Source of the DNA: an uncultured Pseudomonadota bacterium
Lineage (GTDB): Bacteria; Myxococcota_A; Polyangia; Fen-1088
Length of the DNA: 64,000 nucleotides
Direction of reading: 5' to 3'
NCBI GenBank assembly: GCA_963778795.1
Contig: CAVZVU010000001.1
Location: 44,776 to 108,775 of the forward strand
Positions 21,344 through 23,764 of the stretch are shown here, piece by piece. Within the stretch, counting starts at the first letter, position 1; each line of letters opens with the position of its first letter. Position numbers and translations under genes: made by a program. The notes beneath the pieces are model-generated. The model searched no databases. It was not told where the DNA came from and was given only the letters and a program-made list of their open reading frames with translations.

Positions 21344-22588
21344 ATGGCACACCCACGACGTTCCGATTGGTCTGCGCTGCTGCTCGGCAGCACGCTGCTC
21401 GCAGGCTGTATGTCGCCCGACGCCGCCAGCACCCGCAACACGCAGACGGGCGTGTCGGAGCTGGTGTCGGTCAACGGGCTCAGCATGATCAACGGGCTGA
21501 GCATGACCAACGGGCTGAGCATGACCAACGGATTGGCGGGGAACGGTCTGTCGGGCGCGAAGCTACAAATGTACCCGCTCAATTCGACCGGTCTGCCGGC
21601 GACGAGCACGCTCATGAACTCCAGCTCGGGACGCAGCACGGTGAGCTACCTGGTTCGCTGCGCTCTGCCGGTCGGACACCTCGTCACCGCCAAGGACGGC
21701 AACGGAACGCCGTACCTCTTCGCCGGCCAGATCGGCGTCGCCCCGGAGTGGGAGGCCGGCACCTGCGGCGCCACCTGCCAGGAGCGCGTGACCGGCTGCA
21801 TGCTCGCGCACGTCAACACCTCGGGACAGCACATCTCGATCTGGCTCGACAGCGAGGGGGCGATCGGCTGGGGCAGCAACAGTCTGTTCCCGTATCAGGA
21901 AGGGTCGTTCTTCGGAAACATCTTCGTCAGCCCGCCGGTCGCCGATTTTTGCAACGGCAAGGACTTCGACCTTGGCACCGTGCCTGGTCGACTGGGCGTC
22001 GGCCAGAACAACGCGCCGTACGTGAACCCGTTCTACTCGGGCGCGCTTTGCAAGAACACCTGCACCGCCGCTGATTCACCCAACAGCGCCGACGGCTTCA
22101 AGCAGTGCCTCACCAACAAGCACGTGGTCACCGTGTGGCGGAACTTCGATCCGCTCACGCCGTACAGGATCTGCAACAAGACCACCGCGCGCTGCCTCGA
22201 GGTCGCCGGCAGCAGCACCTCAGACGGCGCCCCCTTGCAGCAGCGGACGTTCAACGGCGGCAGCAACCAGAAGTGGATGATCCTGCAGATCTCCCCGAAG
22301 AAATACCGTGTCTTCAACGTCAACAGCGGAAAGACGCTGGACAGCCTCTCCGGCAAGACCACCGACGGTACCACCGCCGTGCAGAACCCTTACACCGGCG
22401 CGTCGAGCCAGCTCTGGTCGTTCACGTCGCTCAGCGACCAGCCGGGCTTCTACGAGATCAGTCCGGTCGCCAACACCAAGACGTCGATTTGCCCCTGGGG
22501 TTCGCTGTACGCCGACGGCACGCCGATCGAGGAGTGGACGTACAACACCGCCGACTATCAGAAGTGGACGATCACGCCCGCGAATTGA
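21344..22588 (+). CDS. secreted lipoprotein: NGLSM[I/T] repeats + Cys-rich domain of unknown function + C-terminal ricin-type (QxW)3 lectin domain
   Basis: ATG follows GGAGGAGG. Lipobox is LLGSTLLAGC. The repeats read NGLSMINGLSMTNGLSMTNGLAGNGLSG. The C-terminal ~130 aa carry NQKWMI, SQLWSF and YQKWTI, the beta-trefoil QxW triplet. Confidence 0.75.
   Translation: MAHPRRSDWSALLLGSTLLAGCMSPDAASTRNTQTGVSELVSVNGLSMINGLSMTNGLSMTNGLAGNGLSGAKLQMYPLNSTGLPATSTLMNSSSGRSTVSYLVRCALPVGHLVTAKDGNGTPYLFAGQIGVAPEWEAGTCGATCQERVTGCMLAHVNTSGQHISIWLDSEGAIGWGSNSLFPYQEGSFFGNIFVSPPVADFCNGKDFDLGTVPGRLGVGQNNAPYVNPFYSGALCKNTCTAADSPNSADGFKQCLTNKHVVTVWRNFDPLTPYRICNKTTARCLEVAGSSTSDGAPLQQRTFNGGSNQKWMILQISPKKYRVFNVNSGKTLDSLSGKTTDGTTAVQNPYTGASSQLWSFTSLSDQPGFYEISPVANTKTSICPWGSLYADGTPIEEWTYNTADYQKWTITPAN
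21473..21556 (+). repeat. in-frame 18-bp tandem repeat (3 units + 2 degenerate 15-bp units) encoding NGLSM[I/T]
   Basis: aacgggctSagcatgaYc x3, followed by aacggattggcgggg and aacggtctgtcgggc. Confidence 0.85.
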
Positions 22589-22819
22589 AGCGCGGCTCGT
22601 TCACGGGCGACGTGCCCGAGATGGTCCTTGCCGATGGCCTTGCCTCTTCGTGCCCATGGCGCGCACCAAGCGCACATGTGGTTTGGTGACGGCCTCTGTA
22701 AGCATCTGTCAGGCCAACATGTTGTTGTCGAGGCAACGGCCGATCAACTGGCGGACAACAAATTTGGCATCTTGTGGCACACAGACCCACTGTTTTAAGG
22801 TGTTTCCCCATACGAAAAT

Positions 22820-22835
22820 TGGCCGGATTCATGCT
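22820..22835 (+). promoter_or_regulatory. candidate sigma54 -24/-12 promoter (TGGCCG-N5-ATGCT)
   Basis: TGGCCGGATTCATGCT compared with TGGCAGGATCTATGCT upstream of the paralog. Its position argues that ATG 22865 (not 22838/22850) is the start. Confidence 0.5.
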
Positions 22836-22864
22836 CCTTGAACCTACGCATGGGGTCTCACAAG

Positions 22865-23764
22865 ATGTTTGGCGCAAGGCTCACGGGTTGGCCGACACTC
22901 TGCGCAGGACTGATGCTTGCGGGGTGCGTACCCGGCTCCGGTACCAGCGAACCGGGCGCGTCTCAGTCCGACCTGTTCGCCGTGAACGGCCTGTCGATGA
23001 TCAACGGCCTGTCGATGACCAACGGCCTGTCGATGATCAACGGCCTGTCGATGACCAACGGTCTTTCGGGCGATGGGCTGGTGTCGGGCAGCGACCTCAT
23101 GAACACCGACGCCGGCCGCGCCACGGTGGCGTACATGGTTCGGTGCGCCCTGCCGTCTGGCAGCTCGATCACCAAGCAGGACGCCGACGGCGTCTCGTAC
23201 ACCTTCCCGGGCATGATCGGTGTCGCCCCCGCGTGGCAGTGGGGCGGCTGCGACAGCGAATGCCAGCTGCAGATCACCCCGTGCATGCTCGCGCTGGTCA
23301 ACACTTCGGGCGTGCACATCCCGCTCTGGATCGTCGGCGACAACCCGGTGATCGGCTGGGGTCTCTCCGCCGGGTTCCCCGACGAGGAAGGGTCGTTCTT
23401 CGGCAACATCTTCGTCAGCCCGCCCAAGGCCTACTACTGCAACGGCAAGGACTTCGACGTCGGCGTCGTGCCGGGCCGCATTGGTGCGGGGCTGGGCGAC
23501 GCGCCGTACATCGATCCGTTCGGCGGCACCGGCTACTGCCGCGACAACTGCACCCCCGCCGACATTCCGGACCAGGACGCGGGCTACAAGGCCTGCATGG
23601 GCTACAACCACGTGATCACGGTGTGGCGTAACCCCGCCAACCTGTCGGCGACGACGACGACGACGACGACGACGACGACGACGACCGACACGACGACCAG
23701 CGCGACTACCTCCGGCGCCGGCGGCGCGGGCGGCGGTAGCCGTCACCGGTCACAGGCGCAGTAG
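22865..23764 (+). CDS. secreted lipoprotein paralog: NGLSM[I/T] repeats + the same Cys-rich domain + poly-Thr/Gly tail (no lectin domain)
   Basis: Lipobox is LCAGLMLAGC. It is collinear with 21344..22588 through ...VITVWRNP (e.g. VRCALP, GCMLA/PCMLA, EGSFFGNIFVSPP, CNGKDFD). It then ends in T12-DTTTSATTSGAGGAGGG. Start uncertain (22850 or 22865). Confidence 0.7.
   Translation: MFGARLTGWPTLCAGLMLAGCVPGSGTSEPGASQSDLFAVNGLSMINGLSMTNGLSMINGLSMTNGLSGDGLVSGSDLMNTDAGRATVAYMVRCALPSGSSITKQDADGVSYTFPGMIGVAPAWQWGGCDSECQLQITPCMLALVNTSGVHIPLWIVGDNPVIGWGLSAGFPDEEGSFFGNIFVSPPKAYYCNGKDFDVGVVPGRIGAGLGDAPYIDPFGGTGYCRDNCTPADIPDQDAGYKACMGYNHVITVWRNPANLSATTTTTTTTTTTTDTTTSATTSGAGGAGGGSRHRSQAQ
22985..23071 (+). 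repeat. in-frame 18-bp tandem repeat (4 units = perfect 36-bp x2, plus a degenerate unit)
   Basis: aacggcctgtcgatgatcaacggcctgtcgatgacc occurs twice. It uses Ser codon TCG, whereas the paralog uses AGC. Confidence 0.85.
23651..23683 (+). repeat. (ACG)11 trinucleotide microsatellite encoding poly-Thr
   Basis: Perfect ACG x11 followed by ACC, read directly. Confidence 0.9.

Follow-up and report, generated by a model that had tools for sequence, protein, structure and literature searches.

We analysed a stretch of 64,000 nucleotides (hereafter, the window) from contig CAVZVU010000001.1 of the assembly GCA_963778795.1, which represents an uncultured bacterium placed by GTDB in the class Polyangia of Myxococcota_A (Fen-1088). 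The subject here is two adjacent genes on its forward strand, copy 1 and copy 2, which encode paralogous predicted lipoproteins with short NG-Leu tandem repeats, a Cys-rich core domain and dissimilar C-termini. All coordinates are positions in the window, and the features of the pair are the following:

21344-22588, forward strand: copy 1 coding sequence (414 amino acids, aa; P0001), a predicted lipoprotein with NGL hexads, a new Cys-rich core and a C-terminal ricin-type lectin
21344-21409, forward strand: copy 1 signal peptide and lipobox, MAHPRRSDWSALLLGSTLLAG followed by the lipobox Cys (Cys22, codon 21407-21409), as read from the sequence
21473-21556, forward strand: copy 1 NG-Leu repeats, NGLSMI NGLSMT NGLSMT NGLAG NGLSG
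21629-22144, forward strand: copy 1 core domain (residues 96-267), a new, predicted alpha+beta disulfide-rich domain homologous to the core of copy 2
22163-22579, forward strand: copy 1 ricin-type beta-trefoil lectin (CBM13-like; residues 274-412) with QxW three times (QKW, QLW, QKW)
22865-23764, forward strand: copy 2 coding sequence, 299 aa from the conserved ATG
22865-22927, forward strand: copy 2 signal peptide and lipobox, MFGARLTGWPTLCAGLMLAG followed by the lipobox Cys (codon 22925-22927), as read from the sequence
22985-23074, forward strand: copy 2 NG-Leu repeats, (NGLSMI NGLSMT)x2 NGLSGD, including a perfect 36-bp x2 duplication
23099-23632, forward strand: copy 2 core domain (P0002 residues 88-265; ~175-180 aa) with eight conserved Cys and near-universal Y99, N155, E184 and R214
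23633-23761, forward strand: copy 2 tail, consisting of PANLS, T12, a Ser/Thr/Gly-rich stretch and terminal RHRS(QAQ)

A pair of paralogous predicted lipoproteins

In the program-made list of open reading frames (ORFs), copy 2 begins with a TTG codon at 22838 (22838-23764, 308 aa), and this version, P0002, provides the residue numbers used throughout for the copy 2 core. The start is most likely the ATG at 22865 (MFGARL...) rather than this TTG, because the MFG start is kept in the orthologues and a -24/-12 promoter element, described below, fills 22820-22835. In copy 1, the Shine-Dalgarno-like GGAGGAGG lies immediately 5' of the ATG. A first-pass annotation of the window, generated by a model from the letters alone, had described the two genes as adjacent paralogous lipoproteins with a shared lipobox, NGLSM repeats and a Cys-rich domain. 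This description is borne out by BLASTP, which aligns the two proteins with 140/269 identities (52%; E 6e-91), the similarity beginning in the signal peptide and extending to the TVWRN with which it ends in both. The shared domain had been drawn too long, at ~230 aa: the folded core of the AlphaFold2 model comprises ~175-180 aa.

Both N-termini have the organization recognized by signal peptidase II, i.e., an n-region, an h-region and a [LVI][ASTVI][GAS]C motif within ~35 residues of the start. In copy 1, the n-region is basic, the h-region hydrophobic and the lipobox L-A-G-C (STLLAG before C22), and in copy 2 the corresponding Cys follows GLMLAG and is residue 21 counted from the ATG at 22865 (Cys30 in P0002). 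The lipobox Cys is invariant in an alignment of 37 ricin-less members (A2) and is kept in at least 90% of the sequences of a 76-sequence alignment (A1). The proteins are likely exported as bacterial lipoproteins, and the conserved cysteines of the core, four of them universal and four shared within the close family, are what would be expected in an oxidising compartment, which supports export. The first-pass annotation had left room for the proteins staying inside the cell; the retention of the lipobox Cys across A1 and A2 and the Cys-rich core speak against this.

The core domain

In A1, the core is marked by eight invariant cysteines (C103, C138, C142, C149, C201, C234, C238 and C253) and by a series of motifs: Y-[LMI]-V-R-C-A-L-P, G-x-I-G-x-A-P-x-W, C-x3-C-Q-x5-C-M-L-A-H-V-N-T-S-G, P-x-[QE]-E-G-S-F-F-G-N-I-F, C-N-G and V-P-G-R-I-G. 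When distant clades are included, Y99, C103, G125, G128, C149, N155, E184, G189, C201 and R214 are each kept in 195-197 of the 197 full-length cores, the count for Y99, N155, E184 and R214 being 196-197, and D115, H153 and four of the cysteines are restricted to the close family. The four universal cysteines together with the four of the close family would, we infer, form four disulfides. E184, which belongs to the EGSFFGN motif, is the single universally conserved Glu. With a single universal carboxylate, classical two-carboxylate glycosidase chemistry is unlikely; a lyase, transglycosylase-like or substrate-assisted mechanism, or pure binding, would fit.

AlphaFold2, given A1, produced a confident alpha+beta model for residues ~85-270, in which 117 residues have a predicted local distance difference test score (pLDDT) of at least 90 and most 10-residue blocks of P0002 88-265 have a mean of 80-97. 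The order of elements is a helix (91-104), two strands (110-114 and 120-124), two helices (131-135 and 140-153), three strands (163-167, 182-190 and 197-202), a long loop and three short strands. A Foldseek search with this model against 350,542 PDB chains gave a best E-value of 2.5, with TM-scores below 0.15, and a search against BFVD, a collection of predicted viral folds, gave a best E-value of 0.42. Sequence and profile searches of PDB with the core returned nothing. In Pfam-A 2025 and NCBIfam 20.0, P0002 had no match at E <= 1 and its distant homologues none at E <= 0.1, and the core of copy 1 likewise had no match in Pfam or NCBIfam. No mention of the family motifs was found in the literature. 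Judged against Pfam, NCBIfam, PDB and BFVD, the core represents a family that has not been described and has no recognizable relative in fold. The central domain had been declared unassignable in the first-pass annotation, and these checks, from Pfam and NCBIfam to PDB sequences and profiles and Foldseek, agree in finding no characterized family.

C-terminal modules and the link to glycans

The C-terminus of copy 1 is matched by RicinB_lectin_2 (PF14200; E 4.3e-28, 98.3 bits, curated cut-off 25.6) and by Ricin_B_lectin (PF00652; E 1.1e-10, 42.1 bits, curated cut-off 29). With its three QxW motifs, it is by sequence a ricin-type beta-trefoil, and sugar binding is predicted, in accord with the (QxW)3 trefoil recognized at the outset. 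The end of copy 2, described at the outset as T12 plus a Gly-rich tail, reads exactly so in the sequence and finishes in RHRSQAQ; its poly-Thr tract is encoded by a 3-bp (ACG)n repeat (23649-23697, 16.3 copies in Tandem Repeats Finder). The pLDDT of this tail is below 50, and the tail is predicted to be disordered. In the copy 2 orthologues, the tails start with PDPSTI and continue with 24-43 Ser/Thr/Gly-rich residues, their length varying, and an Arg/His-rich end (RHRS, RHRY, RRRR, HHHRS or RHHR), a conserved terminal signal, is present in all tails (P0003-P0019 and L012-L014). It is reasonable to view the tail as a mucin-like spacer whose basic end could keep the protein attached to an anionic polymer. 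A MYXO-CTERM sorting signal was also considered and rejected: the tail contains no Cys and no hydrophobic helix and has no NCBIfam match.

The variety of C-termini extends far beyond this pair. A Pfam domain scan of 28 family members of differing lengths and clades places the core at the N-terminal side in every one of them. The only further Pfam domains are glycan binders, namely RicinB (sometimes in two copies), CBM_2, CBM_6, CBM_35 or CBM13-like, CBM_4_9, F5_F8_type_C, SUEL_Lectin and Mann_GBD_bact-like domains; the remaining members end after the core or continue into a Ser/Thr/Gly tail. The swapping of C-termini noted for the two window genes is, on this evidence, a family-wide trait: the core may be followed by glycan-binding modules, of which eight kinds occur, by a Ser/Thr tail or by nothing further. 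In the same 28 members, no second catalytic domain recognized by Pfam stands beside the core. The architecture is that of modular carbohydrate-active enzymes. In myxobacteria, chitinases of the glycoside hydrolase (GH) families GH18 and GH19 carry the same carbohydrate-binding modules (CBMs), CBM13 and CBM2 (PMC12093494). Given the glycan-binding partners and the near-universal Tyr/Asn/Glu/Arg set, we infer that the core is a working module acting on a glycan. The carbohydrate-targeting family suggested in the first-pass annotation is the reading that we favor, as the partner modules fit it best; enzymatic activity, for its part, is a prediction from sequence.

NG-Leu repeats

Tandem Repeats Finder detects an 18-bp array in each gene, at 21472-21531 (3.3 copies) and 22985-23061 (4.3 copies). 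NGLSM is encoded as AAC GGG CTG AGC ATG in copy 1 and as AAC GGC CTG TCG ATG in copy 2, with Ser AGC against TCG and Gly GGG against GGC, and the TCG and AGC Ser codon families occur at the same repeat position even within one array. The presence of both Ser codon families at the same repeat position shows that the repeat is under selection at the level of the peptide, as had been proposed from these very codon differences; NGLTM variants among the orthologues could reflect a passage through Thr from one Ser codon family to the other. For copy 2, the raw sequence also shows the perfect 36-bp x2 duplication that had been reported. The accompanying claim that this duplication and the ACG tract are length-variable divides: the Ser/Thr tail does vary (24-43 aa among orthologues), but the number of NGL units is constant, copy 1 orthologues always having 3+1 and copy 2 orthologues always 4+1 (five units). 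This constancy speaks against length variation of the contingency type, and variation of the NGL array between strains was not seen in the orthologue comparison.

Throughout the family, NG-[LFVMI]-x-x(-x) units fill the stretch between an acidic tether that follows the lipobox and the core. The period is 5 or 6, the number of units ranges from 3 to more than 30 (for example, NGLSMI/T, NGLSG, NGVSF, NGLWx and NGLNxx), and distant clades have the variants NALSY, NALTA and QIMLN. We treat these repeats as a putative spacer or stalk of defined length; in the context of the full copy 2 model, the N-terminal repeats have a pLDDT of ~55. A left-handed beta-helix or pentapeptide solenoid was considered and finds little support: there are no profile matches, and periods 5 and 6 are mixed, where such a beta-helix would keep [LIV]-[GAED]-x2-[STAV]-x over at least 3 coils and a pentapeptide solenoid a period of 5 with A[D/N]LXX. 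The Hexapep profile (PF00132) matches neither the window repeats nor a 30-unit stand-alone repeat protein, the window repeats, with period 6, are not matched by the pentapeptide profiles, and the sole member to score is the distant P0221, whose NGVSF pentads reach 24.8 bits with Pentapeptide_3, under the cut-off of 27 bits.

The same kind of repeat also occurs in stand-alone secreted proteins, in which a signal peptide precedes 12-30 units and the conserved end reads LWTxNGIDPxAPL; a homologue search with one of them gave 6 matches only. At two loci of the source genome (G000) outside the window (C5:1144124-1146004 and C5:915027-916952), a secreted protein of ~30 NGLxxx hexads is immediately followed by a distant core homologue that has CBM6 and lacks repeats, and another stand-alone repeat gene is located at G000 C5:119419-120432. 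A Rosetta-stone link between the repeat protein and the distant core is weak, as the two loci are paralogous duplicates and the orthologue of another repeat protein adjoins ThuA.

Sigma-54-type promoter elements

Upstream of each gene lies an element of the -24/-12 type, and a third conserved element precedes copy 2:

21269-21284, forward strand: sigma-54-type -24/-12 element of copy 1, TGGCAGGATCTATGCT (GG-N10-GC)
22765-22779, forward strand: conserved upstream element TGGCATCTTGTGGCA, ~55 bp 5' of the copy 2 promoter element
22820-22835, forward strand: sigma-54-type -24/-12 element of copy 2, TGGCCGGATTCATGCT (GG-N10-GC)

Both promoter elements have GG and GC exactly 10 bp apart in a TGGCAC-N5-TTGCW-like sequence 5' of the start. 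The pattern TGGCMGGATYYATGCT has exactly two matches in the window, one per gene, against 0.02 expected by chance, and no sigma-70-like site was found in 21100-23950. The copy 1 element is kept as TGGCAGGATTTGTGCT at the orthologous loci L100, L011 and L013 and the copy 2 element in L012, L013, L100, L011 and L014; both are conserved at the orthologous loci of other metagenome-assembled genomes (MAGs) while the flanking intergenic DNA diverges. In the source genome, aGGCAYnnTTACTGCT is present 5' of 12 of the 27 family and related ORFs examined. In other genomes, a GG-N10-GC element occurs in 24 of 82 family upstream regions, compared with a background of 2.5%, and its reverse complement in none of the 82. 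The genome encodes one rpoN (Sigma54_DBD) and ~50 activator genes (Sigma54_activat). These observations suggest a family-wide sigma-54 regulon. In a by-eye alignment of the window with L012, L013, L100 and L011, the element TGGCATCTTGTGGCA appears in the orthologues as the inverted repeat TGGCGTCGTGTGCCA, and it may be an activator site.

Distribution and history of the family

A word-index search with P0002 retrieved 358 relatives, all from metagenomes or MAGs and either unnamed or labeled 'RICIN domain-containing protein'. The A2 profile, searched against 1.84 billion cluster representatives (at 50% identity), has 2327 matches at E <= 1e-3, of which 1627 reach E <= 1e-10. The species genomes contain 210 confirmed loci, and the best 80 of the 210 all come from uncultured Polyangia, Polyangiales or 'Myxococcales' MAGs. 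The assembly of the window itself (8.5 Mb, 7 contigs, 78.6% complete) contains ~20 intact paralogues and, in addition, fragments; several further paralogues are frameshifted and three are distant. Some of the paralogues are arranged in tandem, as at C5:2294-2300 kb and C5:42-47 kb, and the genomes of the same genus have 8-30 matches each. Most genera of the GTDB family have matches; in the remaining families of the class, matches are absent or distant. A sample of 301 genomes of the phylum includes 18 with matches, and outside the source genome these belong to distant forms (E 1e-16 to 1e-39, with some marginal ones near 1e-5). By sequence, the family is lineage-specific and heavily expanded in uncultured soil Polyangia, with distant relatives elsewhere in Myxococcota.

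Among the latter, L091-L098, from other Myxococcota, combine distant cores with a ~250-aa Cys-rich C-terminal extension that has no Pfam match and with NALSY and QIMLN repeats.

Copy 1 and copy 2 are old paralogues of different subclades, because the closest paralogues of copy 2 are located elsewhere in the genome (64% and 62% identity) and, in the core-domain tree, copy 1 belongs to a ricin clade and copy 2 to a Ser/Thr-tail clade. A recent tandem duplication or gene conversion between the copies was rejected in view of their 52% identity, their different subclades and the maintenance of the pair in other genomes. Both window genes are intact, and intact orthologues with 78-83% identity are found in the same gene order in several independent MAGs, conserved in protein and diverged synonymously; at syntenic loci, the copy 1 orthologues have 410 aa. 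In the source assembly, paralogues split by frameshifts, which could be assembly indels or pseudogenes, are present at G000 C5:2297517-2298447, C3:788291-789732, C5:1146135-1148020 and C5:2294350-2295804.

Gene neighborhood

The genes around the pair are:

18791-20260, reverse strand: APC-type amino-acid permease flanking the lipoprotein pair
20253-21143, reverse strand: TauE-like gene beside copy 1
23833-25335, forward strand: APC-type amino-acid permease flanking the pair, divergent to the other permease

The arrangement is conserved in L100 and L101, which have AA_permease(-), TauE(-), copy 1, copy 2, AA_permease(+) and, further on, a TonB-dependent receptor. In the window and at the syntenic loci, this receptor lies ~2 kb downstream of the pair, on the opposite strand and beyond the permease gene. 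An attempt to read function from the gene neighborhood was uninformative.

A proposed function and its alternatives

We propose, with a probability of roughly 0.5, that copy 1 and copy 2 are lipoproteins of the cell surface or of vesicles, produced under sigma-54 control, whose new core acts on a glycan, this activity being a prediction. Each gene would be transcribed on its own from its sigma-54-type -24/-12 promoter, of which the elements are seen in the DNA and the dependence on sigma-54 and an activator is presumed. The products would leave the cytoplasm via Sec, become lipidated on the lipobox Cys and reach the outer membrane, the cell surface or vesicles. The acidic tether and a fixed count of NG-Leu penta- and hexapeptides would hold the globular part at a distance from the lipid anchor. 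The ~175-aa alpha+beta core would then most likely bind and cleave or modify a glycan via E184, as its partners and conservation suggest, and the C-terminal module would determine where the protein sticks: in copy 1 this would be the ricin-type lectin, and in copy 2 a disordered Thr/Ser/Gly linker with an Arg/His-rich end that may hold the protein on an anionic polymer. We also entertain, more tentatively, a stronger version in which the core is a new fold and represents a new class of glycan-cleaving or glycan-modifying enzymes, with a single Glu assisted by Tyr, Asn and Arg; in which soil Polyangia use 20-30 lipid-anchored paralogues under sigma-54 control, with the lectin or CBM of each paralogue directing it to a different polysaccharide; and in which the NG-hydrophobic repeats are an undescribed spacer or assembly motif.

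Several observations weigh against a sigma-54-controlled, glycan-acting lipoprotein. The 197 cores share only one universal carboxylate; the neighbors are permeases and unrelated genes that give no functional hint; sigma-54 dependence is read from sequence motifs, and common descent may account for part of the conservation among the paralogue promoters; the AlphaFold model of the 30-unit stand-alone repeat protein, although it shows regular 3-residue strands, has an unreliable pLDDT of 45.6; and the ricin, SUEL and F5/8-C partners are also typical of lectin-guided toxins and adhesins.

Two of these points lead directly to alternatives. The single conserved acidic residue would fit a core that is a non-catalytic binding or structural domain, i.e., part of an adhesin, a matrix organizer or a protein that captures substrate for an outer-membrane transporter, in which case the family would be a repertoire of glycan specificities. 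Core-only members (P0093 and others), the resemblance of the lipid anchor and spacer repeats to surface-displayed binding lipoproteins, and the TonB-dependent receptor ~2 kb downstream in the window and at syntenic loci are all compatible with such a role, although the receptor gene is on the opposite strand with a permease gene in between. A protein that only binds would, however, rarely require as many as two added CBMs drawn from different families (P0138 and P0135), and the near-universal Tyr, Asn, Glu and Arg in cores that diverge to less than 35% identity are more typical of catalysis, so we consider a purely binding family rather unlikely. The lectins, in turn, bring to mind a toxin or lytic effector guided in the manner of AB toxins, where the core would kill without cleaving a glycan, being membrane-active or enzymatic elsewhere, and the lectin or CBM would deliver it to glycans of bacterial, fungal or protist prey during predation. 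Predatory myxobacteria pack lytic proteins into vesicles, toxins are commonly targeted by ricin, SUEL and F5/8-C lectins, a large expansion of paralogues with diversified targeting modules fits an arms-race pattern, and the ricin A chain appears several times among the weak Foldseek matches. This explanation too is improbable given that CBM2, CBM4_9, CBM6 and CBM35 are typical of enzymes acting on polysaccharides and not of toxins, that no small immunity-like gene is conserved beside family members, and that the core has no hydrophobic or amphipathic features suggestive of pore formation.

The frameshifted members of the assembly (C5:2297517-2298447, C3:788291-789732 and C5:1146135-1148020) might raise the suspicion that the pair itself is an artefact of error-prone assembly or a decaying, repeat-rich pair of pseudogenes. 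The two window genes are nevertheless intact, their intact orthologues with 78-83% identity keep the same gene order in several independent MAGs, and the protein is conserved in the face of synonymous divergence, which leaves this explanation with very little credit.

Returning to the glycan-acting lipoproteins that we prefer, thousands of soil-metagenome proteins carry the domain under no other annotation than 'hypothetical' or 'RICIN domain-containing', and the source lineage, uncultured Polyangia, is known for polymer degradation and predation. A catalytic core would establish a new carbohydrate-active family, possibly with a new fold, which would close an annotation gap in abundant soil bacteria and be a source of new enzymes or binding modules; should the core do no more than bind, the family would still illustrate clearly how domains are shuffled in nature, with one core joined to at least eight glycan-binding modules. 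The link to sigma-54-type promoters suggests that the family is switched on by specific signals, which would offer a handle on the conditions and the substrate.

Comparison with known systems

The closest parallels are the modular carbohydrate-active enzymes of myxobacteria and actinobacteria, such as GH18 and GH19 chitinases with CBM13 or CBM2, in which an exported N-terminal working domain is combined with interchangeable CBM or lectin modules and sometimes with Ser/Thr-rich linkers. CBM13, CBM2, CBM6, CBM35 and CBM32-like partners are common to both. Unlike in these enzymes, the core matches no GH, polysaccharide lyase, carbohydrate esterase, auxiliary activity or other Pfam family and has no fold match, and the family has an N-terminal lipobox with NG-Leu repeats and one universal carboxylate.

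Copy 1 resembles type-2 ribosome-inactivating proteins and AB toxins in joining an effector domain to a (QxW)3 beta-trefoil lectin, but it differs from them in being a single polypeptide with a predicted lipid anchor, and many members of its family have CBMs of the polysaccharide type in place of the lectin. With the outer-membrane lipoprotein lytic transglycosylases of Gram-negative bacteria (MltA-E), the family shares the lipobox, and as MltA-E cleave glycan with a single catalytic Glu, they offer an analogy for a mechanism with one carboxylate. No similarity in sequence or fold to the SLT/lysozyme-like or double-psi beta-barrel folds was detected, however, and the appended CBMs of the family point to glycans other than peptidoglycan.

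The repeats are similar to those of pentapeptide-repeat and left-handed beta-helix hexapeptide proteins, which also consist of short tandem units of 5 or 6 residues with a conserved aliphatic residue. In contrast to these, the window arrays switch between periods 6 and 5 (NGLSMT, then NGLAG and NGLSG) and contain only 4-5 units, too few for a stable solenoid, and their AlphaFold confidence is low. Taken as a whole, the family follows a known design, the modular secreted glycan-targeting protein, to which it adds a working domain and a repeat motif that are both new, and sigma-54-type promoters throughout the family.

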